The position numbers and the translations under genes are program-made. This document shows, in pieces, positions 7,590-63,690 of a stretch of 64,000 nucleotides of DNA. The notes under the pieces are model-generated. The model did not search any database. It had not been told where the DNA came from and saw nothing but the letters and a program-made list of their open reading frames with translations. The stretch lies in the NCBI GenBank assembly GCA_000091205.1, contig AP006496.2; one strand, written 5' to 3'. The first letter of the stretch is position 1, and each line of letters starts with the position of its first letter. Source of the DNA: Cyanidioschyzon merolae. Its lineage: Eukaryota.

Positions 7590-7830
7590 AAAAAGTGTGT
7601 GCCTGAAGGGACGATGACGAGACTGTAATGGCACAGAGGGCACAATTTCGAGGACTCCTCGCATTGATCAGTTCAACCAGCGCCAATGCACGTAATGAGT
7701 TCATGGACCGAGACACCAACGCCGCCATCAATATCAGACGATGTTTGGTGCTGAAGACGAGACCCAAGGAGCTGACGCGATCCAAAATCCCAGGGGCAGC
7801 CTCCCAGGCTCGAAGTATGCCCGTATAAAA
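7590..7830 (+). mobile_element. TnpB/Fanzor-like C-terminal remnant, copy A
   Basis: 'RDDDETVMAQRAQF...NARNEFMDRDTNAAINIRRCLVLKTRPKEL' matches the OrfB zinc-ribbon/RuvC-III 'dRD.NAAiNI' signature. DNA is homologous to 15930-16130. The opposite strand carries 'RIGKYSNSRGMVKCHVV', also shared with copies D and D'. Confidence 0.4.
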
Positions 7831-10230
7831 ACTGAAACCGATAGTAGTCGTTCAGTCGGGAAAGCCCGGGAAGCGTCTGCGAGTGGGTAGATATGTATCC
7901 TCCATGGTTGTGAAACGTTTTCGTTAAGCTACACATGTAGACGCCAGGGGACCTGATTCGTGGAAAAGGGTACACCTGCATATGGGAACACAAAGAGAGG
8001 TCAACCGCAGTTGCTAAAGAAGAGACAAGCGAGAATGACGAAGACATCCGCCCTAGCAACGATTCAGTTGCTTGCTCGCGTACAAGTCGCCATAAAAGAC
8101 AGGATCGCACGGCTCCTCATCTTTCGTACAAGCGCCCTTCGCGGCTGCTCCGCTCCATATTCCTCTGGCCTGTTCTTGAACAACTTCGATTTCTATCCCT
8201 GAAAAAATCAAAGAGTATGCAGCTGAGGTTGGCGTTGAGCTGCTCTTTGTGCCCCCGAAATCTACCTGGTTCAATCCAGCCGAAGGCGTTCCTCTGCTGT
8301 AAAGAGTCATTTTTACCCGCACACACCAGTTCTCGAGTTGTATGCATCCGTCACTCCGTTCTTTGCCGAGTTGCTCCCTATTTACACCAACCCTTAACTG
8401 CCCTGTTTCGTTTCCGCTCATGTGCGAGAAAGAGCGAGCAAGGTGTACTTCGGTCCGTGGTCATGACGCGTAAGGTGACGCAAATGTACTTGAGAAGCAC
8501 TAGATACGAAGACAGCAAATGCCAGCTCCGGTGCCGTGGTCTACCCACTGCGTCTAAAACCCAGAGCAGAAACGGATATGAGGTACTGCGCCCGACTGCA
8601 TTCGATTCCTTCAAGTAGAGAAGGAGGCGGAGAAGTATAAGAAGAAGGAACAACGGGACAATGAAGGGAAAGACTCTTCTTAAAAGCCGACGATGAAGGA
8701 CGACAAGGAGAGACTGTCGAGGCGGAATGCCCGGTCTGAAGTCATTTTGTCATTGCCCCTGTACTAAAACATGTCAACAGAGAGAATCTTCCGAAACGTA
8801 GCACGGAGGGCCCCATTTCAGATGGGGTAACTTCTTACCCGAGCAGGACTTGTTCATCTACCCTTGCGTTGGCGCACTTCCTCAGGCAAATGTTGATCGG
8901 AGCTCTCTGTGCAAGGCTGCAAGCCGTCCATATTCCACCGGAATACGTTGATCAGTCCTTTGTCTGAGAACTGATGCTCGTGACAGAAGACGGGACACAG
9001 CCTGATTATGAATTCAAAGATTTGCATACACGCTTTCCGGAAGAACCAGACGCGATGCCGCGCAACCCAGGCGATGGGATGATCTGCAGCGACAGTGCCA
9101 AACGAGTACCAAGCCATCCTCAATAACCGTGCACGGGGTCAATGTAGAGCGCTTCATGAAAATCGCCTTGTGGGCGTTAGGGCTTCATCATAGAGGACCA
9201 GAAAAGTGGAGACGAATGGAAGGGATTCTTGGGGTTTCAATCAAGGCGAATGACGAGTTGGTTGCGGCGGAGAGCGAGCTGGTACCGGGATCGGGAGAAA
9301 TGCCGCAGTGTGAGCGAGCGTCGCTGTAGCTCGTCGGAACTCATTGTGTGGTCGTCGGCATCGAACTGACAGAGGTCGTGTCCAAAGGATGTTTGAAACG
9401 CAATGCACGACTTGCTTGCATCTCGCACAATTACTTTCTCCTGAACAGAGCCCTCCGGAGCGCAGCAAACTCCATTCTCGAATCTGAACGTAATCCCCTC
9501 CTCAGGCGCGTATTAGAACTGGTTTCGACGTGCAACATCAAGGCTCGTAGAATCACCGAAGACTCGTTCGTGCTATGTGGATTGCTCAGTGAGCCACAGC
9601 TGGTCTCTGCGAGCAATCATTGAACATTCAGAGCACTCCACAAAGTGCGTTGGCGGAGCTCGTTCAAGGATCCTCGTTTTCAGGGAGGAAATGGAAATCC
9701 GTTGACAGGGAATACGGTGACTCAAGGCATATCAGTGTGCACGCAGCTGTAAAGCCGCGGCCTGTGCCGAGTAACGACGCTCGTTCTCAGCCGTTCAAAA
9801 TCGACTAAAAGAAACGCTCACGAATTCGCGTGGATCTGTTTTTTTTGAGAATATCGTGGTTATTGCCTGTCCCTGAATCAGCACGACGCAGCCGAAGATC
9901 TGAACGGAAAGCGGGCACTGCTTCTCAATTTTCCCACGGATCGGCATTCTCGAGAGTTGGGCCTGATGGACTCCACGAGGCATCTCAACAGGTAGAATGG
10001 CGGCGTCGGGACCCACCTCGACGCATTGAGCACGGTATCGAGCAGACGAGCATACGTTGTCGGCTTCATTCAGAGAATCGATCAGCGTCCGAATCGCTTA
10101 TGTGGAGCATCTTTTGCGGGAGGATATGAGACAGCGCCGGGGCATCCACCGGTCACCGTTGTACGAAGGCAGGAGGCTTGCACTCACCAACTTGTTCAAT
10201 GAATCTGAAAAGACGAAGAAGCAGCGTCGT

Positions 10231-10497
10231 TTTGAGGTAGCCTACGGCGCTGGCCGTGCCGCACCGTGCAACGGCTGCACTCCATCTCATTCGACCAGAG
10301 TGTGCAACGAGTGCAGGAATGGATTCTACACGATTCCCATCGATAACTTCAGGTCTGCGAATACAAATCACGAGCACGGGTGCGCGCTGATACTGGCAAA
10401 GAAGTGCGTAAAACAGAACCAGATGGGTTACATGGTGCACGGTAAGCTGACCGATCGTCGGATGGTGAGGCAATCGAAGTTGAGAGGCATGTTATAA
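10231..10497 (+). mobile_element. TnpB/Fanzor-like C-terminal remnant, copy B (divergent)
   Basis: 'FEVAYGAGRAAPCNGCT...RVCNECRNGFYTIPIDNFRSANTNHEHGCALIL' fits 'yTSq.C..CG ... C..CG ... D.NAA.NI'. It shares 'MVHGKLTDRRMVRQSK' with copy E ('MVHGKLNERQMERQSK'). Confidence 0.3.
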
Positions 10498-11251
10498 TGC
10501 GGTTCCACCAGCAACTAGGCGTGCACACAGTTTTCGCATCGTGACACGAACGCCTCCAATAATATCCGAAAACGGCTCGTGATTCCGGAGCGTTTATCGA
10601 CTGTGTTACAAGCGAACCTTTGAGGCTTTCAATTTGTACTCAGTATGGGTGTTACACTGAGACAATGAAAGCCTGCGATGACAACAATCAATGGTCAGGA
10701 TAGAGGACGCTTGGTTCCCGCCTAAACCAATGCACTGGTATGGTATGATCAGCAATCCAGACGAGTGGTGCTTTCGCCAAGCAGCGAACCAGCCCAGGCA
10801 CTTGTTTCATTCTTATCGTGTATGATCGATGCATGCAAATGGGATTGCCTAGAAGCGCAAACGCCACTGGCAGCCAGAAGAGAGACTACCATGCGTCTCT
10901 GGACACTTGTACGGACTACCAGGTAGTCGGTGCATCTCTCCTCATCCAACAGGCCTGCGTACCCAAAATCCCCTCCAGAACTTTTGAAAAGCATTCGCTC
11001 GCACAAGAATGCCGGTGTCCATGCGTTGGAGTCCGTCATAGTACCGCTTGCGTTTCTGGTCGAGGCACAGCGCGGCTCCAGCTCCGGTAGATGTACAGCG
11101 TATTTGTACCTGGGAAATACATGCCTCTATGCGCTGCTCTTCGAGGTTGCGAAAGGGCTATGGTCTCATTCCAGTGCCCAACGAGGCACAACAACTCGAT
11201 TCTGGCGACGACCTCGTTACTCGACAGCGCGCCTTTGGCATCTGTTTTGGC

Positions 11252-12486: not shown

Positions 12487-13239
12487 CACAGAGTTTCTGG
12501 TATGTTGCGAGATCGATGAATACAACCAGGGATCCTGCGGGTGTACGTTGGCTATCGGCAGCCAGGGAAGCGACAACCACCCCACTCTTTACCTTCTGCG
12601 TGCCATGAATCGCTGATCAGGCTTCATTATTTCTGGTATCATATTTGGTTCTAAGGACCTTCAGCGCATAAAGCCTACAGAGGGCGCCTGCTGTGGCTCC
12701 AAAAAAGGACACGCAATCGAACGGGGATGCTCAGCGAATGCATCTGCGGTCGATGGATTGCGGCACCAAGGCAACGGCGACGGATGCGGCGTGGAATCGA
12801 ACGACTCTGCAGGCACATTCCAGTGGCGGTGCGCCTGCGAACCTGCGAACGGACCTGCTGTGTGGACCTGCTCCGTGAACGCAGCTACCAACAATGGGGA
12901 ACGCACAGGTGCCCGGGCATACCCAATTTCCAACTTGCATATCCGAATGCCAAGAAACAGCTCCGCCTTTGTCGTTTGGTGCTACCCCGAGCTTGCACGG
13001 TGATCGAGCTGCACGACAACTCAGACATTTCCCAGTCAAAATCCGAATCGTCCCTATTTCCCGTCAATACGGCACCTCCGACCGGGCGACTAATGTGGCG
13101 TTGTTCATGCCTGCTAGAGTGCCAGCGAGAACGACGCTCGATGTCCCTTCTACTGACAGCAATCATGCATCCTGCGGATTCAGATTCTATGAATTTCTTC
13201 TCTACCGTAAAACGCAGCACCGGCAGAGGCACACGCATC

Positions 13240-13380
13240 ACAGAGCAGAGGCATCGGCATCGGCACCGGCATCGGCATCGGCACAGGCACACGCATCAGA
13301 GGGCATCGGCACAGGCACACGCATCAGAGGGCATCGGCACAGGCACACGCATCAGAGGGCACCGGCATCGGCATCGCGAG
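13240..13380. repeat. (GCATCG)n plus 3 copies of a 29-bp tandem unit 'gcatcggcacaggcacacgcatcagaggg', about 260 bp upstream of the SAM synthetase start
   Basis: Direct read, units starting near 13275, 13304 and 13333. More (CACGCA)n lies at 13435-13455 and (CGA)n at 13540-13575. These repeats generate the spurious His/Arg-rich ORFs 12727-13536 and 12894-13631. Confidence 0.8.
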
Positions 13381-13637
13381 CATCGGCGATCGACGGCGCA
13401 CGAGGGCAGAGCGGCCGCTGCGCGCGCCACTCACACGCACACGCACACGCACATCGTCCATCCAAGAACCGCACGCGTCAGCGCATGCGGACGATGCGGT
13501 GGCGACGGCGGTGCCAGTGTGATGCCTTCAGGTTAGCGCATTGTGGACGACGACAAAGACGACGACGTAGGCGTCGCTTTGATACACTTCAAACAGTTTC
13601 TGAAGCCTCCGATACGCAAATTAGTACTTAGCAAAAA

Positions 13638-14819: not shown

Positions 14820-15689
14820 ACAAGATTCGGAGGATGGGCGGCTGTTTTCGTCATGTGCGGCAGCTGCACGGCGTTCGCGTCAACTGCAGTTCAGCGCTTC
14901 GTTCATCATGGCGGTGCTGGACGCCAGCCCGCAAAACCAAATGCGCAACAGCACATTTGCTTATAGAGCGAGTACAGTGCTCGCTGCAGACGCGTCATGC
15001 AGTCGCTGCAGCTTCGATTGCAGCGCATGCATCGGACGTGATGAGCCGAGGTTTTTGTAAACGTGCCAGAAAACTTGATATTATCTACACAACGGTGCGT
15101 GAACAGTTCACGATTTTCAAAAAATGATCACATGACTTTGCGCTCCTCTCTGCTTTCATGATGATGTGTTTACGGCGCATTTTTTGAGGTGCGACACTCG
15201 AAGAACGCATATCCATTTGCTGCTGTGTTACAAGCTGGAAACCACCTACGACAGCACAACGCGCTGCAGTCAGTCGCAGCGCAGCTTGGAAGAGGTACAG
15301 AACAGCTGCGTCGGCCGCTTGCCAGTGACGCGGCACCTTCTCTCAAGTAGTTGGTGCCGCCACGCATTGCAGTTCGTGTCTAGATGCTTCGAGAGTTGTC
15401 GCTGCGACCACCTAAGATACTCAACGCCCCGAGATGATGTCGAATTCCCGGTCTCGCGGTTTCGGGTTACAAGTTCACCGTCGCATATACTAAGTCTGCC
15501 TCCAAGCATTCCTAGTCCCGGGAATGGACCAAAATTTTAGGAAAAGACAGGTCCGAGAATGACGGAGTGGAGTACCTGTTGCAACGGAACAGCAATCGCT
15601 TCGCTTCGTATTTTGCGGGCAATTTGCTTGCCGGGAGAGTCATCGGATTCGATATCTTGATCCTATCGTCTTTCAACGCAATTGTGCTC

Positions 15690-16160
15690 AATCCTCAGGT
15701 ACGTGCCATCGAATGCTTTTTTCGCGGTTGTAGCAGACGCGTTCATGTTTAGAAATAAAAAATCCAAGGGAAAGGTACGGACGTGGTTGTCGGGGATCCC
15801 GGAGGGCCGGCATCGTCGGATCCGACGAAAAAACGAAAAAATACTCTCCTCGTCGACCATCGAGCGAAGAAGCGCAAGTGAAGAAGCAGCAGCAGAAGGG
15901 TTGTACGCGAGAACAGGTGCTTGCCCTACGGGACGATGACGAGACTGCTATGGCACAGAGCGCACGGGTTCTAGGTATTCATGCAAAGGTGCGTTCCGCC
16001 AGCGGCAATGCACGTAAGCAGTTTGTCAAACGACACCTCAACGCCGCCATCAATATCAGACGATGGATGGTGCTGAAGACGAGACACGAGGAGCTGATGC
16101 GATCCAACACTTTGTGGAGCAGTCTCTTGTACTCGAAGTGTACACGGTGGAGCTGAAGCC
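15690..16160 (+). mobile_element. TnpB/Fanzor-like remnant, copy C
   Basis: 'RNKKSKGKVRTWLSGIPEGRHRR', then 'RDDDETAMAQSARV...', then 'KRHLNAAINIRRWMVLKTRHEEL'. Same module order as copy D and DNA homologous to copy A. Confidence 0.4.
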
Positions 16161-16779
16161 GTCAACCCGTGGCCGGTCAAAAACTGATGGGAGGCTTCTT
16201 CGCATGGGTATTAGTGTACCAGCTCGAGCCGACACCCTCTGCGGTACAGCAACGCCGATCTATCTCTCGGTGCCACGACAGCACGGGCGCTGTAGGCGCT
16301 ATTGCGAATCCATCAATGCGTGCACTCGGCGCACGAGAGAACGTATGAAACGACCAATATAGCCGAAAAGACTCATGGGTTATGGAAGTTGGATGTTGGT
16401 AGAAAGATGGATGCTTCACCACGCGCTGATACTACGCACATAGTAGGGGAACACTGACAAGTTTTGCCAAACAGAACATGCGTCGAAGCTACGGCAAACC
16501 AGTGCATGGATAAAACAGAACTTTTAGGGCCTTGTATGTATCAAAAGGACATGCCGTGTGGAAGCGTATGCCGCCTCCGCTGCAGCCGCCGGCCCGCCGA
16601 GACTCAACGCGATGCGCAGGCGCGTCAAATACGAACCTGCAGCGTAACGGACGACAGGAGCGTCGGCGCGTTGGGTACACACTACACCCGCCACGGTCTG
16701 GTGTAGCATAGCGCGTGCCTGTGGGTACACTGCCTGAGGTTCGGTTTATGCGCTGAGCACCGACGCTCTATCGCAGTAC

Positions 16780-21642: not shown

Positions 21643-22518
21643 GCGGAGCGATGTGCGGACGTTCGCGATCGCACCGTTTTCGAAAATAAGAGGATGATTA
21701 AGGGGCATCTTGCAAGCAGTGACACTGTTCCGTACGCATTTCATAGTTGGTTCCGACGCTAGCTGTACCCTGAAATGACATTCCGGTAACGCTGGTATTG
21801 GTTAATGCCCATTGCAGCGGCGTTACGCGAACGAATGCCATTCAGCTTTCGTCGGTGTCCAGTCACTGCAGATTGGCGCATGGCCTGTTCCCGTCGACCA
21901 TGCAGTCGAAGAAACTGGTGCCCAAGATCCCCGCTCGACTGTGTCGGCCGTCGAGCTGCCCGCCTGCCGAGACTCATACGCGAAGTTCGGCTCGACGGAG
22001 CTGCCTTTGTAATCCTGGAGCAGGCTGGATTGTTTTCTGGGGGCGTTTGCATGGCTAGACTAAATTCTAATGGTGAGCAATCCGGGAATCTGACAAGGAA
22101 AAGTCGACCCCCGTCACCCCGGTGCGGCTGGATACATTCAGATGCCCTCGAGACTGCTCAGCGCTGACACGGATCCATCCATCCATCCATTCGCGTCTTT
22201 CCCAGAACGGTTCAAGGGGCGTTGCGACGCTTTCGCTCAGGGCCAGGACCAGGCACCAGTCCAGCCTCATGAAACGTGATGCAGAGCAGCACCATTCGCC
22301 ACATGGTAGCGCTTGCGGATAGCTGCCGTTTGCACTGGCCTAGCTTGCTGCCGTTCGTGCAAGCGCGTTGCAGGCTCCACGGGGAGTTGTACGTCTGGCT
22401 TTGGCAGAGCGCCGAAGGCATCTTCGCTGTGCAGAACAAGCCGAAAACGTTGCCGTGCAGTGCGCTGCGTCGTATTCGCATTCTAGACAAGATCAGCAAA
22501 ACGAACAATGTTTCACGG

Positions 22519-23750
22519 TCATGGAAGATAAATATATCCAACCATCCGCAGACGCTTCCCAGCCTTTCCCAACCGGCAGCATGCTATTGGTTTTAGTTTC
22601 TCTCTGCACACATCGAGCCTTTGAGGTAGCCCTACGAAGTTTGATTGCGTCAGCGCCGCGGGTCCCGTCTTCAACACCAAGCATCTTCTGGTATGGGTCG
22701 CGGGATTGAAGTCCCACTTCATGATCTCCTTGCGTTTATTGCCTCTGGTTGAGCTCACCGAGGGAGAGCGTGCTCGAGCTCGCACCCTCTGTGCCACCAA
22801 AGTCTCCTCATCATCCCGTTGAGTAAACACCTTTTCTCGCTTATCTCACATCCTCTTCTTCTTCTTCTCGTCATTTGCGCTTCTTCACTTGATGGTCGGC
22901 TAGAAGAGGATTTGATCGATTCTTTTTTTCGGTGAGCCGGCGATGACGGCCCTCCGGGATCCCCGCCTTCCATGTCCATACCCTTCGCTTGGATTTTTTA
23001 TTTCTTGAAAATGAACACATTCCTTTGGAGGCTTCGGCGAGAACCATTCCGGAGGGGTAAGCGCTTGCGGAAGAGAAACGATATGTGCCACGGTATGGCG
23101 CCATGTGCGGAACGCCTCAGCGATTCGCCCAGTGGACCGATTATTACGTTTCACGGTAGAACGCACTCCTTGGATGAAGCTGAACCTCGTAGAGTACGCA
23201 GGAATGAAAAGCAGCTCTACTCCCCGGATAGAATCGGCAACAGCTCGAACGCAAGAGGAATGATCAAATACCACGCTGTCCGATAGGAGGTCGTCGCCAG
23301 ACGTCAGGGAGGAGTCTCCAATGGTTCGGCAAAGTTGACGGTGCTGTTGTATGACGCTCTTCCACTTGAGAAACCGAGGTCGCCGAATGACTCCACCACG
23401 CCAAGAATAGATGGTGATGTCATCCTTCTCTTTGGGTTCGATTTCACATGCAACGGGCTCCCGGCTGCGCGACAACCCAGGTGCACTCCGACCGTTTCGT
23501 CCGAAGCAAGTCTCGTCAACTGAAACAGAAAAACCGATGTGCCTGTGTCTCATTCCGATCCCAAAGTTCCAAGAATGTTGTAGCAGGTACGATGTCGGTG
23601 GAAGATGGCGGTGCTTGAACTTGGACTCTTTCCTTGAGACTGTATCGCGGTGTTTTCAGGGCCAAAATGAACAAGCTGTTGAGAGAAAGAGACGCCCCTG
23701 GAGACTGCCATCGTCGCTTTTTGCTCTTCGTAATGCGTCCAAGAGGTCGT
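22519..23750 (-). mobile_element. TnpB/Fanzor-like element, copy D (760 bp of it near-identical to 29944-30695)
   Basis: Minus-strand order: the 217-aa ORF 'MRHRHIGFSV...VACEIEPKEKD...ELLFIPAYSTRFS' (resembling TnpB 'vdPaYTSq'), then 'RNKKSKRRVWTWKAGIPEGRHRR', then 'RDDEETLVAQ...THTRRCLVLKT'. Body shared with D' and copy A. Confidence 0.45.
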
Positions 23751-24224
23751 CTTCTACCATTGACGGCAAACAGCGTCTGATTATACCTGTTTTTGGCACA
23801 GAGCGCACATAGGCTTCTTTCTGTCGCTGTGGCTTAATCATGTGAGGACTGCGATATGACCGACCTGAGAGAGGAATGCTGTCCTCCTTGCGCTTTTCAT
23901 TAAAGAACACATCCTATGTGCAATGCGTCTACGATCTACAGCATACATTGCATCGTTATTTCGATCTCCTGCTGCACACCACTTCGGGGGTGAAATCATA
24001 CAGAGCTGAAAGACTCCAAAAGGAAAGATTCGCAGCGAGCATCCAGGTCGCACGAGTCGCTTCCAGCAGGCACCTCGGGATAGAACACAAGCGTCCAGTG
24101 GCGGTGAGCCGTGTTCGCAGTCGAGGCACTTCGAGAAGGCGCTTTTCTTTCCAGAAAACGTTGACGGGCTTGGTGTGTGCGAGCGTGCGTGCGTACCACC
24201 TAGGCAGCGAGTCCCAGAGCGTTC

Positions 24225-27271: not shown

Positions 27272-28149
27272 CGGAACCGTTACGCCTCACTGGGGCCACA
27301 CTCCCTCGACGGCCTTGCCAGACAGTGTCGGTGTCGGTAGCGGTAGCGGTAGCGGTAGCGGGTACGCGAGTAGAAGCGAAAGCTTGGCCAGTGCGGCTGC
27401 AGCGCGCGCGCGCCCAAGCGCATACCTCGAGCGCGCAACACCAGTCGTGTTGCCTGCTGGAGTGCAGTCCGCGGATGGAGGCAGTGTTCCGGTGAGTCGG
27501 CAACGCTGCGGAGAGGCGAGGTACATTTCAGGTGAGTTGTGCTTCAGACACTAGGAGACGCTTGCGAAACGAGAACAGCGTTTGCTGGACGCTGGGGAAC
27601 GCGATCGAGGCGGTGAGCCTGCGGGTACCCGGCTTGCAGTAGACGCTAGACCAGTGCCAGGTGAAGATGGAACGCGAAACTATTCGGTCTCTTCCTGGTA
27701 TGAAGTTTTCTCCAAAGTTTTCGTTGGATATAATACGCCGAGATTCGACGTGGGAATGTAAATGGCTTTGGGATTTGTGAATGGTTTCAGGTTTCTCTGG
27801 TGTGTTTTCCAGAGTGACTCCAATGACGCTCTGCCGCTGGAACTCGTTCCATCACGGGAATCAAGAAGGTTCGCGATGCCCCCGAACAAGCACCCGGATC
27901 ACGACCAACACCCTGATCCATTGCACATGTGCAAGTCTCGACGCTTCTACTTTCGTTACGAGTCGCACGCTCAAATCACGTATTCTTGGGGGTTTCGACC
28001 TTCCTGTTTCAAGGCGATTCGCTGGTGCAGCATTGGGCGCTGCTGGTGTGGCGAGGCAAAACGATGAATGTCGCCTCGTGATGACTTGTTCACGAGCTCA
28101 TACGGAAAGAACGCGGAAGTTGTGACGTCAGATGATGAACTCTGATCGA

Positions 28150-28460
28150 AATATAAATCCTTGTTTCTTTCTTGCGGTCGACGAAATCGCACTCGACACT
28201 GGCAGCATGAAACTTATCACGGGACATGCTCCGAGAGGTTTCCTTCTATTCTGTTTGTATGCCAGAGCGTGCTGGACTCGGATTTCAGTCATCAGGGCGA
28301 TCGTTTCTTGCGGGGCGTATTTTACTGGTTTGCACAAAGGGAGCGTATACGGGTAGAATTTTTTCGGCTTCTTCAGCCTGGCTTTGCGTTCCATATCTGT
28401 TTCGTCATGGACAAGCTCACGTTATACAAAAATACCCATCGAATGGAACAGCGTGAGCGT
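28150..28460. repeat. Dispersed ~300-bp repeat, copy 2 (pairs with 1640-1935)
   Basis: See copy 1; the conserved DNA block 'gtgctggactcgga...atcg' is shared. Confidence 0.55.
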
Positions 28461-29689
28461 GCAGCGAATAGCGTCCACCCCGGCGAACATTGCCCAGAGA
28501 AGGCCTGTGACCGCAGGGTACGGCATCGGGCGCGGAAACGGAGAAAGGGCATCGAGAGGAGCCCTCTGTTCCCGTTATCAGCATGTATCGAGCGATGAGG
28601 CAAGCGTTCACGTGCCACAGAGCTGTGCCCTGACCAGGAGGTGCGATGGAAATTTGCAGACACCTGACCACAGCCAAGTACAACCGATGCGAATAACGCA
28701 CCCAGGCTGTCTACGAAGGAGATGCAGAAGGCGTGCGAAGCGCCGATCGAAACGAACGCCCCTGCATGAAACGCGAAGAAAAAACCGGAAGCTGCGATAG
28801 AATGACTTTAACGATAACATCAGCATCCTTCGACTGATAACACAACGGCGCCGGCGAGCCAGGAAACACCGGTGTGTTGAAAGCGCGCGATAGGCGTACT
28901 GGAACGGGAGCAAGCACCGAAAAAGCGCCCCAAACGCTTGTCTTCATGACATTCGTAAGAGACCAAAATCTTTAGTGTATGCACCCGAGTTCACAAAGTG
29001 ACCTGTTCCATCATGGTCTGACACGGGCGTGTCTCGATTCACGTGCCGAATGTGCAGTCAAAAGCGCTCCACAGAGATAGAACGGCTTCGCGATGCCTTC
29101 CCAGACCTCAGCTCGACGCGTGGAGAGAAGGCACACCAGCCGGGACTCCTTGTTGGCATGAGCGCCCACAGCTGGTTGGCCCAGGCCTGCGTGCAGCGGC
29201 GCCGAACGATTCCATGAAGGAACTCGTACACGACAGCGGCGCGGTACTGCTGGGCATCCCTTCACAGTCTGCAGGCGACTGCGTCGCGCTCACGCCCCGT
29301 GAGTGTCGCCACGCCACCCTGCACTGCGGTGATGCAATACGCATTCGCTCAGCCGACGTGTCTGGTCAGCATGGCTTTCCAACTAATTTTCTCCATTTCG
29401 CGTAGGCGATAGCAGGGACGCCCGCGCGACCTGAAGCCCTGAAAGACCGAAGCTTTAGCAGACGGCAGCATGTGCGAGCATCAGCGGAACGCATCACTCA
29501 AACTGTGCACCACACTCGCCGGGTATACCATGGGGTCGATGGAATGAAACCGGTTTGCGACCATGGTTCATAAATGTATCTACCCACGCGCAGACACCTC
29601 CCAGCCTTTTTCGACCAGCCTCCTGCTATCGATTTCAGCTTTTCCGTGTACACCTCGAGCATCGGAGGCTGACCCACAAAGTTGGTTCA

Positions 29690-30695: not shown

Positions 30696-30929
30696 CCACG
30701 AATCGCCGCAAGCATGCACACGGCATATCGGTTATTGACGCATCGTGCATCTACCTGATTCTCTCAGCGTACCTGAACCATCAAAGTCCTCTTGTATGAC
30801 TGACCTCAACGAGGAATACATTCCTCTTTGCACTATTCCATATATAATCTAGCCCATAGGCAGTTCGTCTAAGATCTATAGAATACATTGCATCGCGATG
30901 TCGATCACCTGCTGCACACCACATCTTGA

Positions 30930-39487: not shown

Positions 39488-39488
39488 C

Positions 39489-40790: not shown

Positions 40791-43151
40791 TTGCCTGCAT
40801 ACCACCGAGACCAGTTGCGACTCCAGCAAGCTTTCGTACAGTGCTGTCAGAGGTCATCAGCGTGAGCCGTTTGGACGCCCATGTATTCTCGGAGAGACGC
40901 GTGCACAGTGTGCCATGCTGCTCGGTACGATGCTCTGAGCGTTGAGATGGGCCCTGGCGCGCCGCCATTCCACTTGTTGATACGCAGAATGGGGTTTATC
41001 TTGCCCGATTCTTGATGATCACAAAGTCCCGGAAAATTTGGTCAGCGCCATCAGGTTTTTGTTCAGGTATTTGGCTACGTCCTGATGATGTAGAGGTACG
41101 GCGACGGCCGCGACGCACTGCAGACCGGATGCGACGCCCATCACGAAGCCTTCACTCCATCTACCTTGACCATTTCGAAATGCATCTCTTTGCCTGACAG
41201 GGCCTCGGATCTACCAAGTGCATCTACACTGATATCCCGTCAGACATCGAAACCCTTGTGAACTCCTTTCCATTTCTGTCCTGCAAACGAGAAATCTTGG
41301 ACGGGTTTCGCCAATGCCCTCCGTGAAGTTGTTCAAATGCTGCACAGACGCTCGCAAAGACTGGGCGTGACCCTCCGATGGGACCATACAGTACTGAACG
41401 GTCTCTATTGATATGATTAGCCTGCATCTCATAGATGCAAACCATGTCGAATAGACGCCTCAGGAAGCGAGGGCGCTCGGATTCCGGGAGCGCATCTGTT
41501 TTGCTGACGAGGCATCTATTCAGAGGCGAGCAGTAGTGCAAGATGCACGCAAGGCGGATATCACGTCCTTGCCATCTTTTGGATACAACGCTTGTCGGTC
41601 CGCGGCCGAGGGCAATGCGGCGAGCCTGGACGCTCTGAAGAAATTGTCGTTCTCACTGGTACCTCTCTTCGAAATGCGCTACCATTTCGATCTCGTTCGC
41701 CACCGCCAGCTCGCTATTTGCCTTGATCGACACCCGACGGGGCGCTTCCATCAGTACCCAGTTTCCGGGGTCAGTAAGGCGAAAGTACAACGCCAGCAAT
41801 GTGCGCCTTGTAATCCGGTCATCATTAACCCAAACACATTTTTGAGTTGTGGGCTTGGTTTGATACTTTTTGGCATATGCGCCGTACGAGTTCCGATCGC
41901 AAAGGAGGCGGAGCGACGTGTCACATTTGCTGGGAAGAATGTGCACAAATCCTGGATCTTACTATCAGTCCGTATTGCGCCTTCTGTCCAGATCATCCGT
42001 TACATCGTCGCAAGAGTCTTTGATTGACAAATTCCAGAGGAAGGAGGGCAGCTCGCTGTCCTTCGTCCAGACCCCATACAAACAGTTTCGCAACGAGATG
42101 TTTGTCAAGGAGAGTGAAGCGAAGCGAGCCTTCCTCAAATTGGAAGCTCCGCAATCCCTGGTGACGTGCTGCATCCTTTTTTGTGCCGCGGAGGCGAACG
42201 ATTGGTCTGTTGGTCCATGGGCGGCAAATGGTGTCTGGCGACAGAGAGCACGCCTTCGAATGGATCGAACCAGGGAGAACAGTCTGGCACGAACACCAGT
42301 TCGACCCGAATCCGAGTTGCGTATTCCTTGATCTCATCTCTACGAACAGCGGTTTGCCTCTCCCGGAGCACCTACATGCAGGCCTACCATTTTTTCCCGA
42401 GACATGTCTCGTCGAGTGAAACGAAAACTGTCGCTCCTTTACCAAGCTTTCGCGTTCCAGTACGAAATCGATCGCAAGTCATCGAATGCACGATGATCTC
42501 GCAAAGACGAGTGCTTTTTTCTTGGCTCATCCGTGTCTTCATCACCGTCCGTACGAACTGTACGAAAACGTGCCATTCCGGTGCTTCTTTCGCAGTATTT
42601 CATGGAGAATGTATGAAGTGGAATGGATTGACGAGGAGGCAGTCGTTACGACGGACTTTAAGTTCCGTATCGGGTGCACGACGTTCAGGGTAAGGACAAC
42701 GAGCGGGCTGGTTCATGCACCTGCTGACAACAGCGTGACTAGCTTGTCATCGTAAGGCCGTTTACTGCAAGCTAGTGGTGACAGCATCACGTCTTTCCAC
42801 GACCATTCTTCAGTCTACTAGATCCACTTTTTTTGTCGAATGCCTGCGAGAAAAACGAACAAAAAAGTAATGTTTGCATACCTGCTCCAGAATTCACTGC
42901 TCTGAGTATTCCACGGGTTGCGGGTGCTGGTCGTGGGTGGACCTTCCCGAGCCCGCGTGTTTTGGACACATTCCTGCCCGCGTTTCGACGGCGGCAGTGC
43001 TGTGAGGCCGTGCGCTGCACCCTCATCCCATGTGAAACAACGCTGCACCCTGTACCACGAGGCACGACGGAAACACGATCCCAGTCCACAGATGACAGCT
43101 TTGCGGGATTCGTGAACGGTACGCTCAAGCCGCGGGGCTTTTTAGAGAGCC

Positions 43152-45394: not shown

Positions 45395-45619
45395 CAGAAA
45401 ACCAAGACAAGGTAATCGTCAGCCAAGAGTACGTACTCGATCGTATGAAACCGGCAATAGCATCCTCATCTGTGTGACGCATCTGTTTAGGATGCGCGTT
45501 CAGTGGAAAACGCCACGAATCATGGTGTTGCGAGATCGATACATTCAGTGGGATTCTTCAGATGCGATGTTGCTGCCAGAATATAAATATCAACCAAAAA
45601 AATCGAATAGGTCTGCTTT

Positions 45620-46980
45620 GCTAACTTGGGTATAGACGCTAACGTTTGGATGCCTTGCAAGTGTCATCGACAGAAGCGTTTGCACGCGTTTTTCGTCGAT
45701 GACTGTTTCAGTGTGTGTGTGTGTGTGTCCTCTCTGTCGCCCGTATATCCGGATTCCAATACACTGGTCTTGATGCATCTGCGTCCAGTTCTGTCGCCTT
45801 TGGACGACAAATATTGATGGTAGCGTGCAGGTCCCGGTTTCTCCGCCTCCGGCTGTTGCCGACGCATACCAGGCTCATACGAATGTTGCGATCAGCACTG
45901 CGCTTGCAGTGTTCTTTTTCTGCGTTTACAGCCTCGGTGCGCGCTTTGCAGCTGTGACAAATGACTGAGGTCAGGTGTTTTCGTATGGCCACCAGACCGT
46001 CCCCTCCGAGATCCGCGCTGTGGCACGTGGACGGTTGCATCATCGACCAGTACGTACACCTGACGTGTCCAGCAGGCGCCCGTCGACGCCTTGCTCTGGT
46101 GCTGTGCTCGGTACCGTACCCAGCGATCACAAGGCTTGTTCTGGACGATCTCGTCGACGAGTACAGTGTCCGCAGCCCACGCGTGAGCGGTCACTGCTCC
46201 GTTCAGTGGGGTATTGGCGGCAAACGATGTTGTTTACGATGAAACAAGTCCTCGAAGAAATATCCAGGCTGGAGATGGAGTCGAGAAATTCCGATCAGTC
46301 TCCGATCCCTTCGTGCTAAGCGATGACGCATGCCCCACTGGAAGCGATCGCTACGATGACGCAACTCGGTGTGTCCCAGACACTTTTCCATGCAAATAGA
46401 AGCAACCACAGCGTCCCAGCGCATATCCGCTTTGAGGTATGATGTTCTTGTCGAACGCGGTTCCGTCGATGATCTCGAAGCGGGGAGCATTTGTCTTCCA
46501 AAACGGAGTCGATTACTTGACGTGACATGTTCTGTGAACTTGAGGCATGAGCGCTCGAAGTAGTCGTCAAGCGACGACACCCATGATTCCGCTTTCCGTA
46601 TGAAAGTGGCGCGAATGGCAGCGCCCGTCAGTTGCCTCGGGATCGACTGATCCAAAACCTGAAGAATGTGTGCGATTCGAGCATGCTGCACGCAAGGCAA
46701 GGCAAATGCTGCAGTCTTACGCGTCTGAAAAGGATAATCATATCTGTTATTCCGCGAGCGCTTGTTCGTGTGCATACCGAGTCATGTTGCTACAGGTGAC
46801 GTTCCGAGTGCCAAGCGCGGTAGACCCGAACGCGCCGCTCCGAAAGCAAGTCACAGATTCCGTAAACGACCTCTGAAACGGTACGCCTTTACTGCTGCAC
46901 GTCGAATGTCGAGCATGCACATCTCCAGAAAAAAAAACCTCGGAAAAATCAAAAGGCGGGAAAATAGCCTGCAGTTCAGC
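45620..46980 (-). mobile_element. 1.36-kb repeat, left copy (L), encoding a TnpB/Fanzor-like ORF interrupted by two in-frame TGA codons; inverted partner at 62320-63690
   Basis: The 190-aa ORF (46203-46775, '...RRLIGISRLHLQ...') is followed in the same frame by 'LTSVICHSCKA...EKEHCKRSADRNIRMSLVCVGNSRRRRNRDLHATINI' (45708-46130), which fits 'yTSq.C..C ... C..CG ... dRD.NAA.NI'. The copy boundaries were read from where identity with R is lost. Confidence 0.5.
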
Positions 46981-47747
46981 GTTCTCTTTTAATTTTATAC
47001 GGGCGCAGAGCATAGGTCGCCGTTCTTCTTGTATCGCTTCCATGTCCCGTGCATTCCAGTTCGATCTAGCCGATGGAAGCGGAGGCTCCATCGATCCCGC
47101 GATGCCTTAGATGCCGAGAAATCCGCGGACACCAGCTGCAGCGGTGTATGCGACGCAAGCGCTACCCATGCCCAGCTCCAAAATGGTTCTCCGATACCCT
47201 GACCGATAATGCCGAATGGTCTTCTTCTCACACCCGCATGATTGTCGCTTCGCGATGCAGCGAACGTGATCCAGGGCCAAAGCCCCGCCTTCGACATATC
47301 ATGCAGCGAGGAGCGGAAGCCGGCAGTCCAGTGGTAGCACTCGTGCCTCGCCCCCGGGGGCTATGGGTATTGCGCTTTTGGAAAAACCCGCGCACGAGAC
47401 ACGCCCCGATCCGACATCATTTTTCATCGATGGGGTCAGCGCTACAGAGCCCAACAATGCAAGCCGGGGATCATCACGCTGGTTGGATCCTTCCCAGCCG
47501 CAATCGAACGCTCCTCTGGAACTGGGCGCTGTCTCCCTCGGAGGGAATTTTTTCACTTGCGAGTCCGTCGGTAAGGCATTCCCAACTTAGCGCACACACA
47601 GGCGCCAACACCCGAGCACCAACACTGGTTATTCAATCTGCTCCGATGACAGTGCTTCGTCCTTGACCTCGCTCAAGATGCTACGGATGTTGCATCCGTG
47701 GACGTGTAGCGTAGAGCCGGCTACGGTGCCGAGATCGTGGGAGATGG

Positions 47748-52837: not shown

Positions 52838-53647
52838 GTGGCAGAAGCAACGCAGTGCCGCGCTTCCATGTGGATCAATCAGCGCGAGCCAACCGGTAAA
52901 CGACTCCGAGAGCGTGTGCTGGTGCTGCTGCTTGCGACGCTCTGGCGACCGTTTACGGCCATGGCTCGCTTCTTACGCCTCCGTGGCGGGGCAAACCGTG
53001 GCCCAATAGTGCTTACGCTGGACGAGGTTGAGTTTTTGATTGATTGTCTGCCACCGCCACCGGAAGCAAGCGCGTTACGCGGACGCCTGAACGCGCTCCT
53101 GGGCGCACTTCGCAGTGGACAGCCGGTACCGGCGGAGGTCGCAGGAGAGCGTCCTTCCTCAAGGAGCCCTTCGGTGGATCACGAAGTTCGCGGCAGTCGC
53201 TATCGCTCACCAGCACTCACAGTTGATGCGGCAGTGCTTCGTGGACCGCGGGAGGCACTCGAGATCCTGCTTGTGACGCGTGCTCGAGAACCTTTCAAGG
53301 GTAAGCTCGCGTTCCCTGGTGGTTTCGTCGAGTACAACGAGGATCCTCAGGACGCTGTGGTTCGCGAGTTGGCCGAGGAATGTGGTATTCAGGCCAAGAA
53401 CCCGCAGCTCGTGGCGGTGCGAGGACACCCCTCCAGGGATCCGCGGCAGCATGTCGTAACTGTATGTTACAAACTGGATATTGAAGGACAGCATGAGCCT
53501 CGCGCAGGCGACGATGCCGCCAACGCCGGCTGGTACGCCGTCGAGACGCTCTTGAAGAGCCACGAGGGCCGTGCTCGCCTTGCGTTTGATCACGCGGATC
53601 TGTTAGCGCAACTGGCAGCGTGGCTTGACCAGCGACACCGACGCTGA
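52838..53647 (+). CDS. Nudix hydrolase (ADP-ribose pyrophosphatase-like)
   Basis: Nudix box 'GGFVEYNEDPQDAVVRELAEECGI' (Gx5Ex7REUxEExGU). The N-terminal extension may be a presequence. Confidence 0.7.
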   Translation: MAEATQCRASMWINQREPTGKRLRERVLVLLLATLWRPFTAMARFLRLRGGANRGPIVLTLDEVEFLIDCLPPPPEASALRGRLNALLGALRSGQPVPAEVAGERPSSRSPSVDHEVRGSRYRSPALTVDAAVLRGPREALEILLVTRAREPFKGKLAFPGGFVEYNEDPQDAVVRELAEECGIQAKNPQLVAVRGHPSRDPRQHVVTVCYKLDIEGQHEPRAGDDAANAGWYAVETLLKSHEGRARLAFDHADLLAQLAAWLDQRHRR

Positions 53648-53939
53648 GCACTGGAAAACAGTTGCGGGCATCCGCAGAGCGATGCGCTTTGCAAGACCTC
53701 GGAAGGACTGTCGCGATGCAACCGGGGCGTCATTGGAGCATGCCCAATCGATGCTGCTGCTGCTGCTGCTGCTGCACATGAATATGGACCGGGAAAACAC
53801 AGGAATGGCAGGATCATCGATCGACTGCAGCCTTGTTTCCAGCGTAGGATGCGACGCAGTGCCCGGGCACTGGACGCTGCTGAACAGCATGGCGGACGGA
53901 ACTCGGCGGGCGCCGCGCACGATGGTCCGGTTTCTTTGT

Positions 53940-54560
53940 GCGATATCGAAAGAGCATACAGGATCAGGGGCACCGCGAACATCACACCACGAATATGTCT
54001 GCTTTGGATGGTAACGTACAGAAACATAGAAGATTAAGGGCAGTTTGCTTTGAGCGATATCATGCAGAAACGTACAGGATCAGGGGCAGCGCGAACATCA
54101 CACCACGAATATGTGCGCTTTGAATGGTAACGTACAGAAACATAGAAGATTAAGGGCAGTTTGCTTTGAGCGATATCATGCAGAAACGTACAGGATCAGG
54201 GGCAGCGCGAACATCACACCACGAATATGTGCGCTTTGAATGGTAACGTACAGAAACATAGAAGATTAAGGGCAGTTTGCTTTGAGCGATATCATGCAGA
54301 AACGTACAGGATCAGGGGCAGCGCGAACATCACACCACGAATATGTGCGCTTTGAATGGTAACGTACAGAAACATAGAAGATTAAGGGCAGTTTGCTTTG
54401 AGCGATATCATGCAGAAACGTACAGGATCAGGGGCAGCGCGAACATCACACCACGAATATGTGCGCTTTGAATGGTAACGTACAGAAACATAGAAGATTA
54501 AGGGCAGTTTGCTTTGAGCGATATCATGCAGAAACGTACAGGATCAGGGGCAGCGCGAAG
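53940..54560. repeat. 116-bp tandem satellite, about 5.3 units
   Basis: The landmark 'cgtacaggatcagggg' recurs at 53955, 54071, 54187, 54303, 54419 and 54535, an exact 116-bp period. Units are about 98% identical. The array ends where 'gcagcgcgaaGaacgcgcgcg' diverges. Confidence 0.9.
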
Positions 54561-55798
54561 AACGCGCGCGAATCCGATTGTCGATTTGCAGGAACGAGGC
54601 GCCCGCCATCGATGTGCACTGCGACTGCCGCGAGGCGGCATCCGGAATAAGCATCATCAAGGCGCCCTGTTTCTTTACGAAGGTTTGCTGACGTCGCAGC
54701 AAGCGTCTGAGGTAGGTTCAGCACCCAAAGGGTCGCTGGTTCAGGTAAGCGTCTCCCCCTCACCGGAGTAAAGCACGTGCATAGATAGATAGAAGTGAAA
54801 ACGTTTGTGCAGGAACTTGAGTCTGTTCCCTGATTCCTCGTAACATTCGTTTCTCTGGGGATACATCATCAAATTCAATACTTCTCAATCATAAAAAATA
54901 CCGATGCTTTTCCGTGCAGGATTATCAAGGACACTTTCCCGGCGGCATCAAGAAGCCGCAACATACGATCGCCAACGCCTAAAACCCCGGAACGGTAGCG
55001 TTCTACGTGCCCGTTCGCCGCTGGACAATGGTCGATCACCGTACTGGTGCCTCGAATACGTCATTCCTGGATCCCATCGCAGCCAATGCATCTGTTTAGC
55101 GTGCATCCAAGGAGCGCGAGGCGCTCCCAGCAACGATACTGAGTACCAGCGTGGCGTGCGCACATCACACATTGTTGGACAAAACTTTTCCTTTATTCGT
55201 TGACCAGGATCGAGCGCCGTGGAGCTAACCAGACCTCCGGTGAATCGGTTGCCACTCTCCCGATCTTCCATATTCGTCTGCGAGTGGAGAACTGGACAAA
55301 GCAGAGCGCCGAAGCGCGCATCCGTGCTCCGGCGGCGCCGATGTGCCTCATCTGCTTTCCTCGACTGCAGGCAAGAAACGCTGCGTTCAAGAAGCGTCTG
55401 GACACTCAAGGCAGTTCTCGAGAACTTCGACCGTTCCAAACGCGAAAGCGGCACCCGCTGCGTCCTGCTCCCCCGCCGTTGCCAATGTCGCTGCCGCTAG
55501 CGTCCTACGGGCTGCTCCTACCTGTCCAAGCAGCGCTCCGTTTGACTGCTCACCGCTGCTCGTTATCCAAAGTCAAGCCCCAATATTCTGCGCATGCGCT
55601 CGCGCTGCGGACTGCGTCAAAGTTGCGTACCTCACTAGACCAGGTACAAACCAGTGTTCCGGTTGCAGTCGCTCCGACGAACAGGGACCTCTTGGCCTCT
55701 AGCGAACCGGCGGAGACGCTGCGCGCGAGTGACCGACACGTTTCGCGCCACTTGGTATCGCAGCTGAGCGAGCGCCGGGTTGTACTCGCTCGTTCTTC

Positions 55799-62243: not shown

Positions 62244-62319
62244 TCATTGGCGTTAGGTTTCCGGGGCTGTGGCTCCAGCGCGCGCTGCAAAACCCGCGAC
62301 GGGCTGATATATCCGGCAC

Positions 62320-63690
62320 TGAACTGGAGGCTATTTTCCCGCCTTTTGATTTTTCCGAGGTTTTTTTCTGGAGATGTGCATGCTCGACGTTCGACGTGCA
62401 GCAGTAAAGGCGTACCGTTTCAGAGGTCGTTTACGGAATCTGTGACTTGCTTTCGGAGCGGCGCGTTCGGGTCTACCGCGCTTGGCACTCGGAACGTCAC
62501 CTGTAGCAACATGACTCGGTATGCACACGAACAAGCGCTCGCGGAATAACAGACATGATTATCCTTTTCAGACGCGTAAGACTCCAGCATTTGCCTTGCC
62601 TTGCGTGCAGCATGCTCGAATCGCACACATTCTTCAGGTTTTGGATCAGTCGATCCCGAGGCAACTGACGGGCGCTGCCATTCGCGCCACTTTCATACGG
62701 AAAGCGGAATCATGGGTGTCGTCGCTTGACGACTACTTCGAGCGCTCATGCCTCAAGTTCACAGAACATGTCACGTCAAGTAATCGACTCCGTTTTGGAA
62801 GACAAATGCTCCCCGCTTCGAGATCATCGACGGAACCGCGTTCGACAAGAACATCATACCTCAAAGCGGATATGCGCTGGGACGCTGTGGTTGCTTCTAT
62901 TTGCATGGAAAAGTGTCTGGGACACACCGAGTTGCGTCATCGTAGCGATCGCTTCCAGTGGGGCATGCGTCATCGCTTAGCACGAAGGGATCGGAGACTG
63001 ATCGGAATTTCTCGACTCCATCTCCAGCCTGGATATTTCTTCGAGGACTTGTTTCATCGTAAACAACATCGTTTGCCGCCAATACCCCACTGAACGGAGC
63101 AGTGACCGCTCACGCGTGGGCAGCGGACACTGTACTCGTCGACGAGATCGTCCAGAACAAGCCTTGCGATCGCTGGGTACGGTACCGAGCACAGCACCAG
63201 AGCAAGGCGTCGACGGGCGCCTGCTGGACACGTCAGGTGTACGTACTGGTCGATGATGCAACCGTCCACGTGCCACAGCGCGGATCTCGGAGGCGACGGT
63301 CTGGTGGCCATACGAAAACACCTGACCTCAGTCATTTGTCACAGCTGCAAAGCGCGCACCGAGGTTGTAAACGCAGAAAAAGAACACTGCAAGCGCAGTG
63401 CTGATCGCAACATTCGTATGAGCCTGGTATGCGTCGGCAACAGCCGGAGGCGGAGAAACCGGGACCTGCACGCTACCATCAATATTTGTCGTCCAAAGAC
63501 GACAGAACTGGACGCAGATGCATCAAGACCAGTGTATTGGAATCCGGATATACGGGCAACAGAGAGGACACACACACACTGAAACAGTCATCGACGAAAA
63601 ACGCGTGCAAACGCTTCTGTCGATGACACTTGCAAGGCATCCAAACTTTAGCGTGTACGCCCAAGTTAGCAAAGCAGACCTGTTCGACTT
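62320..63690 (+). mobile_element. 1.36-kb repeat, right copy (R), inverted relative to L; TnpB/Fanzor-like ORF with the same two in-frame TGA codons
   Basis: The 190-aa ORF 62521-63093 is identical to 46203-46775. 63253-63582 reads 'LTSVICHSCKARTEVVNAEKEHCKRSADRNIRMSLVCVGNSRRRRNRDLHATINI'. The frame is continuous, with TGA at 63091 and 63103. Confidence 0.5.

Follow-up and report, generated by a model that had tools for sequence, protein, structure and literature searches.

Probable relics of Tc1/mariner-type transposons carrying Fanzor1 in a 64-kb nuclear region of Cyanidioschyzon merolae

A stretch of 64,000 nucleotides (nt) from the nuclear genome of Cyanidioschyzon merolae (GenBank assembly GCA_000091205.1, contig AP006496.2), hereafter called the window, was analyzed for sequences related to Fanzor1, a eukaryotic homologue of prokaryotic TnpB. 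Ten relic loci were found, and it is highly probable that they are dead remains of Tc1/mariner-type cut-and-paste transposons which carried a Fanzor1 gene. B and E are decayed near-full-length elements, and A, C, D, D', F3a, F3b, L, and R are internal-deletion derivatives. The homology of the loci, the layout of the elements, the nesting of one element within another, the deletions and the decay were observed directly. Altogether, ~17 kb of the window (26%) derived from Fanzor1/transposase elements. A first-pass annotation, made from the sequence alone, had listed eight of these loci as TnpB/Fanzor-like; A, B, C, D, D', and E were strongly supported and L and R were recovered through the consensus of their family, of which two further copies had been missed.

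Results

Relationship to Fanzor1 proteins

Fanzor proteins were named by Bao and Jurka (2013, Mobile DNA 4:12; PMC3627910), whose family descriptions list one C. merolae Fanzor1 family, CMe-1A. It is described there as ~150 copies, ~80% identical to a 3169-bp consensus with a 734-amino acid (aa) Fanzor1. The consensus DNA and protein used in this work were taken from the supplements of that paper. Searched against the six-frame translation of the window, a profile of six Cyanidiales Fanzor1 proteins had matches at A, B, C, D, D', and E only (domain E-values of 4e-44 to 3e-8). When the queries were the published CMe-1 Fanzor1 and its intact relatives, tblastn gave E = 1e-8 to 1e-78 at the A to E loci. 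The parts of the CMe-1 protein that matched A, C, D, and D' were its far N-terminal end and aa 612–729 (E = 2e-8 to 2e-21), and B and E were matched over aa 155–699.

A search of a large protein collection with CMe-1 retrieved 45 homologues, all of them metagenomic. The full-length ones are 660–750 aa long and 31–71% identical to CMe-1, the identity being 43% for a subgroup formed by P0066, P0068, and P0069. P0066 matched B from aa 47 to 676 (tblastn, E = 1e-78) across three frames and at least eight stops, and P0069 matched E (E = 3e-40), where the match of the subgroup spans aa 143–685 in several frames, also with stops. An exhaustive profile search extended the relatives of the clade to 3791 at E ≤ 1e-3, and the RuvC triad (Asp398, Glu569, and Asp636) was invariant in a 71-sequence clade alignment. 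The profile of these 71 sequences matched the solved Fanzor1 structures of Parasitella parasitica (9cf0, E = 2e-23), Spizellomyces punctatus (8gkh, E = 8e-17), and Guillardia theta (9cer, E = 8e-13) in the RuvC-I region and in the RuvC-II/zinc-ribbon/RuvC-III region. Therefore, the Fanzor1 membership of the clade has been tested directly. However, pairwise similarity of CMe-1 to these characterized nucleases was undetectable: phmmer searches of the PDB sequences with CMe-1 and with the translation of L returned nothing, and profiles alone succeeded. The earlier reading of the loci as decayed eukaryotic homologues of TnpB, i.e., Fanzor, is thus borne out, for Fanzor1, by profile, tblastn, and solved-structure matches.

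The Bao–Jurka motif, [TS][TS]-x-x-[zinc finger]-x(5,50)-RD, was present in the C-terminal half. It reads 'FRSANTNHEHGC...HRDTNASNNI' in B, 'WCDSCGKK...QDLNAAMNI' in E and 'LTSVICHSC...CVGNSRRRRNRDLHATINI' in L and R, and A and D' retain only its RD-NAAINI part. The CMe-1 lineage lacks a full set of zinc-finger cysteines, having lost the second zinc-ribbon Cys pair ('LLALVSTTS' versus 'LLWCDSTS' in its relatives). All the peptides quoted in the first-pass annotation were found by six-frame translation where it had placed them, with NAAINI at 7718 (+), 16040 (+), and 29732 (−), NAAMNI at 40384 (−), LTSVICHSCKA at 45942 (−) and 63322 (+), and RNKKSK, GIPEGRHRR, and RDDDET equally in place.

It should be pointed out that general-purpose models did not detect the loci. 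PF07282 (the former OrfB_Zn_ribbon) was the top Pfam match of each locus but was never significant (E = 0.06 to 4.5), PF01385 was absent from the Pfam scan of the loci, and an NCBIfam scan that included the TnpB models gave zero matches at them. Nevertheless, the intact Fanzor1 proteins of the clade and the published consensus also reach only E = 0.2 to 3 on PF07282, and the Pfam significance test is therefore powerless for this clade. The only precomputed Pfam tag carried by the Fanzor proteins of intact relatives is DUF8286 (PF26935, weak). The first-pass annotation had proposed to judge the loci by significant matches to such models; those to Pfam stayed below threshold, whereas those to the clade profiles were significant.

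Association with a DDE_3 transposase

Two metagenomic elements, L006 (1–3538) and L007 (401–3791), are apparently complete and may serve as reference copies. In L007, the open reading frame (ORF) directly upstream of the Fanzor1 gene matched DDE_3 (PF13358) over the curated cut-off (E = 2.4e-25) and has 295 homologues, mostly of ~300 aa. L006 carries an uninterrupted 295-aa transposase upstream of Fanzor1, and both of its ORFs are intact. Terminal inverted repeats (TIRs) of 28 nt in L006 and 32 nt in L007 enclose both genes, giving elements of 3454 and 3391 bp, respectively. A DDE_3 transposase was also found directly upstream of Fanzor1 in 10 of 80 further metagenomic loci, the intact layout being seen in L006, L007, L025, L026, L029, L037, and L086, and a right-end repeat (roughly TGTWMCA...GAGTATA) was common to ~10 loci. 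From these copies, an intact element would be ~3.4 kb long and consist of a TIR, a ~295-aa DDE_3 transposase, a ~700-aa Fanzor1, a short 3' untranslated region (UTR), and a second TIR.

The same association was detected in the window. The L007 transposase matched D, D', A, E, and B by tblastn (E = 1e-11 to 2e-8), and its match coincides with 'LLFIPAYSTRFSFIQG', aligned to 'LLYVPAYSPWFNPIEG'. The peptide 'LLFIPAYSTRFS' of D and D' corresponds to the transposase motif 'VPAYSPWFNPIEG' (Tc1/mariner-type DDE) and precedes the Fanzor start codon. This peptide had been grouped with LTSVICHSCKA as a 'PAYTS' block; LTSVICHSCKA does belong to the Fanzor1 relic of L and R, but 'LLFIPAYSTRFS' is part of the DDE transposase and not a RuvC-II/Fanzor 'TS' block. 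A profile built from 94 full-length transposases matched A (E = 2e-29), D' (8e-23), D (1e-18), E (8e-12), F3b (1.6e-7), and B (2e-5 to 3e-8). It was weak at F3a (E = 0.004), and L and R alone were not significant (E ~0.1), although the consensus of their family matched it at E = 1.7e-21. All the transposase copies in the window are decayed.

Repeat families

Sensitive self-comparison of the window, together with a repeat finder, showed that the loci fall into three DNA repeat families instead of a single one. A, C, D, and D' form family 1; B and E, with ~61% identity over 1975 nt of DNA, form family 2; and L, R, F3a, and F3b form family 3. Pairwise DNA divergence between relics was 30–40%, with the exception of L and R (98–99% identity). 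The three families differ in age, and the picture of one family that expanded in a single burst and then decayed is not supported. The mosaic of recombined modules seen in the first pass is in fact the product of internal deletions of a two-gene transposon and of reading-frame artefacts: 'RDDDET..AQ' together with 'NAAINI' is the in-frame Fanzor tail, and 'RNKKSK..GIPEGRHRR' is an out-of-frame Fanzor N-terminus, in which GIPEGRHRR reads 'GDPGGP' in the true frame. At the DNA level, A, C, D, D', and a separate fragment at 16214–16416 were 65–73% identical to the 3169-bp CMe-1A consensus over 110–366 nt. B, E, and family 3 had no blastn match to this consensus and are related to it at the protein or profile level only.

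Element B (6285–10743, + strand) is a near-full-length composite transposon with a native length of ~3.28 kb, interrupted by A. Its candidate left TIR (6285–6312) was obtained by alignment and its candidate right TIR lies near 10716–10743, of which 10728–10741 was scored and the remainder was placed by eye. According to the transposase profile, the transposase relic of B occupies 6420–6677 and 7951–8338, and its Fanzor1 pseudogene, corresponding to aa 47–676 of P0066, extends from 8749 to 10665. The RuvC-I Asp of B is lost and the RuvC-II Glu is replaced by Asn, with the RuvC-III Asp retained. Element A (6755–7931, +), an internal-deletion derivative, consists of a transposase relic (6823–7527, profile positions 1–234) and a Fanzor1 C-terminus (7562–7885, ~aa 640–728, 'DRDTNAAINIRR'; Fanzor hidden Markov model (HMM) E = 4e-20) between TIR-like ends at 6755–6781 and 7910–7931. 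The transposase profile match of B is split around A into positions 20–105 and 143–271; A is inserted within the transposase gene of B.

Element E (40204–42909, −), also a near-full-length composite transposon, has a candidate left TIR at 42909–42883 (from alignment), a transposase relic at 42815–42228 (transposase profile), and a Fanzor1 pseudogene at 41958–40324 ('WCDSCGKK...YQDLNAAMNIRK'), in which the RuvC-II Glu is replaced by Ala and the RuvC-III Asp is retained. The candidate left repeats of B and E are placed exactly at the start of the DNA homology between the two elements.

In family 1, element C (15664–16210, +) is a CMe-1A-type copy without consensus positions 1021–2807. What remains of it is a portion of the 5' leader, the first ~38 aa of Fanzor, and a C-terminus reading 'KRHLNAAINIRR' (blastn to consensus positions 786–1020 and 2808–3082; Fanzor HMM E = 2e-12), in which the RuvC-III Asp is replaced by His. 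Element C is directly adjoined by an inverted CMe-1A 5' fragment (16214–16416, −; consensus 65–266, blastn 73%, E = 1e-30). According to the family description in PMC3627910, the first 635 bp of CMe-1A are common with a second repeat, TE-N2_CMe, and the 65–266 region is part of them. A weak match at 29070–29385 (+; consensus 208–527, blastn 57%, E = 2e-4) is possibly another TE-N2-like fragment, an assignment that we make tentatively from this similarity.

Element D (22495–24016, −) is an internal-deletion derivative whose similarity to D' extends to 24143. It carries a transposase relic (23948–23098, profile positions 1–277, including 'LLFIPAYSTRFS'; tblastn E = 1e-20 to 1e-22), the Fanzor start codon (22979, −), and the Fanzor C-terminus (22869–22543, 'KWDFNPATHTRR', Fanzor HMM E = 3e-8). 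Element D' (29524–30956, −) is of the same type, with similarity to D up to 31090. Its transposase relic (30888–30040) lies in one frame with four stops and has D, D, and then Gln replacing the third acidic residue of the DDE triad, and its Fanzor C-terminus (29933–29582) ends in 'SRDFNAAINIR' followed by the stop (tblastn with CMe-1, E = 2e-21). A, D, and D' all join transposase positions 1 to ~234–277 onto the Fanzor start plus the tail, and they have common end motifs (left, TAGTCTTT..GTTTCAC; right, GTGAAAC..GCT) which coincide with the limits of DNA similarity.

D (22997–24143) and D' (29939–31090) are repeats in direct orientation, separated by 6.9 kb. Identity between the two transposase parts is 86–90% overall and 98% over a 300-nt patch. 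The D copy of one strain contig (L091) is 98.2% identical to D' of the window and only 93.3% identical to D of the window, and that of another (L088) is 99% identical to D. To judge by the identities, this looks like ectopic gene conversion that differs among strains (L088, L089, and L091).

In family 3, F3a (~1140–2497, +) is an internal-deletion derivative of ~1.36 kb with 15 stops in the reference frame. It contains a transposase relic (~1357–1966, HMM match 1357–1725) and, according to the four-copy alignment, a Fanzor1 C-terminal relic (~1967–2347). F3b (27662–29021, +), delimited by self-comparison and the same alignment, contains a transposase relic (27811–28374) and a Fanzor1 C-terminal relic (~28492–28871), with a 23-nt inverted repeat at its ends (27651–27673 and 29005–29027). 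In self-blast, both copies were 59–61% identical to L/R and to each other. L (45592–46992, −) retains a Fanzor1 C-terminal relic (~46145–45765, 'LVIAGYG...LTSVICHSCKA...NRDLHATINI') and a weak transposase relic (46369–46226, transposase profile). R (62304–63694, +) is inverted relative to L; their 1219-nt arms are 99% complementary (98.3% over 1380 nt) and lie 15.4 kb apart. R shares both stops of L, the only two in 350 codons. The 98–99% identity of L and R reflects either recent duplication or homogenization by gene conversion. The pair brackets 15.4 kb of ordinary genes, among them those of propionyl-CoA carboxylase, a PHD-finger protein, and an M48 peptidase, and is a potential substrate for inversion.

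L and R scored only 2.5 bits each in the six-frame Fanzor1 search, and a word-indexed homologue search with the L translation gave zero matches. The C-terminal peptide of L alone scored 13.4 bits, and 2000 shuffles reached 6.5 at most. A family-3 consensus was then taken as the DNA majority of three independent lineages in the four-copy alignment, with no Fanzor information used. Its C-terminal translation scored 26.5 bits on the broad Fanzor1 profile (maximum of 5.4 in 2000 shuffles; E = 1.7e-8) and aligned to profile positions 493–598 ('AYG..SVP..EFRTS..RGLLWC..NRDLNAALNI..RP'). In this consensus, transposase position ~224 is joined to Fanzor position ~493. Divergence among the family-3 copies was ~0.40, equal at all three codon positions, which looks like neutral decay.

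Two other interpretations of L and R were discarded. A transposase–Fanzor fusion protein is ruled out by the flat codon-position divergence and by the 190-aa ATG ORF of L (46203–46775), which by coordinate arithmetic is out of frame with the transposase relic; therefore, the nearly open 357-codon frame does not represent an ancestral fusion protein. A compact TnpB-only element is contradicted by the deletion that joins transposase position ~224 to Fanzor position ~493.

Decay of the copies

Stop codons were found in every copy, and frameshifts also in the near-full-length B and E. RuvC-I is missing entirely from A, C, D, D', and family 3, and no copy in the window retains all three catalytic RuvC residues or an uninterrupted ORF. 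The first-pass annotation had seen no intact RuvC catalytic core, which agrees with the loss of triad residues or of their region and with the stops present throughout. As judged from their sequences, the copies of the window are pseudogene members of their families, none of them functional, and DNA cleavage would not be expected given the catalytic residues lost.

Four syntenic metagenome contigs, ~99% identical to the window at 3.6–24.8 kb, contain all the relics located there (A to D). Mismatches between strains amounted to 2–8 per 500 bp in relic bins and 0–1 in the best-conserved gene bins, and the higher divergence of the former is consistent with absence of constraint. No presence/absence polymorphism of the A to D insertions was observed among these contigs, which accordingly yield no dating information.

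Genomic context

The premise that the window is a eukaryotic nuclear region was correct. Its G+C (guanine plus cytosine) content is ~56% and its ORFs include ordinary intronless nuclear genes. Two long ORFs, encoding S-adenosylmethionine synthetase (BAM81320) and the alpha subunit of propionyl-CoA carboxylase (BAM81329), are identical to C. merolae 10D proteins, and further intronless ORFs encode anthranilate synthase, an E2 acyltransferase, a chlorophyll a/b-binding protein, and a TPR protein. The telomere repeat AATGGGGGG was not found in the 64-kb window, and a subtelomeric location is thus without support.

A tRNA was predicted at 39489–39615 (−), close to element E (~600 bp from its end), with an Rfam score of 41.7 bits; its 71 model positions extend over 127 nt, which implies a large insertion or an intron. 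ARAGORN reported none in the whole window. Unusual tRNA genes, among them permuted ones and ones with multiple introns, are a known trait of C. merolae. At 53841–54675, between the ORFs at 52838–53647 and 54948–55454, a 116-nt unit is repeated in tandem approximately six to seven times, the inner copies being 98% identical. In the bin at 13000–13500, the window and strain contig L088, elsewhere 99% identical to it, show 48 differences. The ORF at 12727–13536, just upstream of the S-adenosylmethionine synthetase gene, contains a direct repeat (13217–13398 versus 13331–13510) with which this bin overlaps, and the differences are probably repeat-length polymorphism in a low-complexity coding region.

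Discussion

The proposed history of the elements can be summarized as follows. By reference to published work, the DDE_3 transposase would have been responsible for the cut-and-paste movement of the element, with TA as the target site. By analogy with known systems, Fanzor1 would have acted as an RNA-guided DNA endonuclease, with a guide RNA produced from the 3' end of the element and overlapping the right inverted repeat; by cleaving DNA that matched the flanking guide, it would probably have favored the retention or homing of the element. The derivatives lost the middle of the element, comprising the final part of the transposase and the bulk of Fanzor1, and kept both ends, which is the reason why the RuvC-III and zinc-ribbon tail of Fanzor recurs. 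Activity today of anything in the window is unlikely.

Several results weigh against this interpretation. The published CMe-1A consensus has neither a transposase nor inverted repeats, and consequently the link between CMe-1A and mariner-type transposons depends on A, D, and D', in which a transposase relic and a CMe-1-like tail occur together. The TIRs of the window, predicted at the ends of A, B, D, D', E, and F3b, are candidates only, with scores near the shuffle maxima, and a search of the window for a degenerate inverted-repeat pattern gave 0 matches. The copies are heavily decayed, and the outer-end dinucleotides are TA on both sides in A and on the left only in D', but D is flanked on both sides by GA instead of TA. 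L and R are only marginally recognizable when taken alone. With regard to the guide RNA, the 3' ends were folded, as had been suggested in the first pass. The last 132 nt of the CMe-1A consensus gave z = −3.4 and relatives gave −0.2 to −3.3, but RNAalifold on 48 CMe-1A 3' ends yielded only three pairs, without covariation or conserved structure, and the 3' UTRs of diverse intact relatives could not be aligned except for the inverted repeat.

The relics were compared with what other origins would predict. An explanation of the motifs by chance, or by low complexity in GC-rich DNA, without any relationship to TnpB or Fanzor, would fit the sub-threshold PF07282 matches (E = 0.06 to 4.5) and the blank NCBIfam TnpB and PDB phmmer searches. 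Nevertheless, Pfam fails on intact Fanzor1 proteins too, specific profiles and tblastn reach 1e-78, shuffle controls gave 0 of 2000, and the profile is linked to solved Fanzor1 structures, so this explanation is refuted and its probability is negligible. An origin from prokaryote-type TnpB of IS200-IS605/IS607 elements (Fanzor2-like, of organelle origin or acquired by horizontal transfer) rather than Fanzor1 draws on family 3, whose ~1.38-kb unit has the size of a TnpB-only insertion sequence and whose zinc ribbon covers more of PF07282 than CMe-1 does (positions 4–60, E = 0.07). Against it, the family-3 consensus places the DDE_3 relic (E = 1.7e-21) before the segment of Fanzor1 positions 493–598, and the family therefore derives by deletion from a large element. 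In addition, no tyrosine or serine recombinase was seen, no NCBIfam TnpB model matched and the best structural relatives are Fanzor1, which makes a TnpB origin very improbable.

It could also be argued that some copies are domesticated or functional, for example through the 357-codon frame of L and R or through 3' ends that give guide RNAs in trans. L and R have indeed only two stops in 350 codons, diverse deletion derivatives all retain the last ~100 Fanzor codons and the 3' end, the z-score of the CMe-1A 3' terminus is low (132 nt, z = −3.4), and, in the account of CMe-1A by Bao and Jurka, some copies elsewhere in the genome are intact. On the other hand, the 190-aa ORF of L is off the transposase frame, catalytic residues are lost, codon-position divergence is flat, relics gather more strain differences than genes, no conserved structure emerged from RNAalifold, and the fold z-scores of relatives are mixed (−0.2 to −3.3). 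Function is accordingly regarded as improbable, and dead relics of Fanzor1-carrying Tc1/mariner-type transposons as the explanation to be retained.

The 3' ends deserve a further comment. A, the C/D/D' group and the four-copy family 3 have differing deletions and all keep the last ~100 Fanzor1 codons plus the 3' end. This retained part could encode a cis-acting guide RNA, with the copies maintained or re-homed by Fanzor1 supplied in trans, a possibility that we consider doubtful. In relation to this, a strong hairpin, CGCCGTTCGA-CTT-TCGAACGGCG, was seen at the terminus of CMe-1A copies (e.g., L052:2186–2211; 48 copies among L004–L087). Its stems differ yet pair in several copies (TTCTA/TAGAA, CGTTTTTC/GAAAGGCG, and CACGCGC/GCGCGTG), and for 22 of the 48 CMe-1A 3' ends the fold surpasses that of 95% of the corresponding shuffles. 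The hairpin does not figure in the CMe-1A description of Bao and Jurka (2013), which states only the absence of inverted repeats.

CMe-1A belongs to the same genome and protein family as the relics described here; A, C, D, and D' align to its protein at aa 1 to ~38 and ~612–729, and the published picture of an old, mostly decayed family fits the copies of the window. They differ in that A, D, and D' carry a DDE_3 relic before the CMe-1-like tail, in contrast with the published consensus. Moreover, B and E represent a second Fanzor1 lineage, with ~43% protein identity to CMe-1, and family 3 a third. Autonomous Mariner/Tc1 transposons carrying Fanzor1, with a guide RNA overlapping the inverted repeat, have been reported (PMC10530073), and PUl-1 of Pythium ultimum is described as such a Mariner/Tc1 element (Bao and Jurka, 2013; PMC3627910). 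The layout that is intact in the metagenomic relatives resembles theirs in the inverted repeats, the DDE transposase, the Fanzor1 gene on the same strand, the length of ~3.3–3.6 kb, and the probable TA targets. In contrast, the copies of the window are decayed or internally deleted, and their TIRs and target duplications are candidates only. With respect to prokaryotic TnpB, there is distant homology in the C-terminal RuvC/zinc-ribbon region (PF07282 as a sub-threshold top Pfam match), and by analogy a guide RNA would be expected at the 3' end. The proteins of the clade are nonetheless longer (~700 versus ~400 aa), their partner is a DDE transposase instead of a Y1 or serine recombinase, and they reside in eukaryotic nuclear DNA.

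The element type and its presence in C. merolae were already known, and the partnership of Fanzor1 with Mariner/Tc1 is established, so that the significance of these results beyond annotation is small. For CMe-1A, the family description in PMC3627910 reports that no inverted repeats were found and gives the class as 'unknown'. The gain of this work is that the Fanzor relics of C. merolae are now tied to DDE_3 transposons of the Tc1/mariner type through A, D, D', B, and E and their metagenomic relatives, and that at least two further decayed Fanzor1 lineages are present in the genome besides CMe-1. In this regard, Pfam and NCBIfam scans are blind to the clade, and its relics will consequently remain unannotated or be mistaken for novel ORFs. 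Finally, a quarter of the 64-kb window consists of transposon debris, a proportion that refers to this window and is worth noting in a genome known for its compactness.

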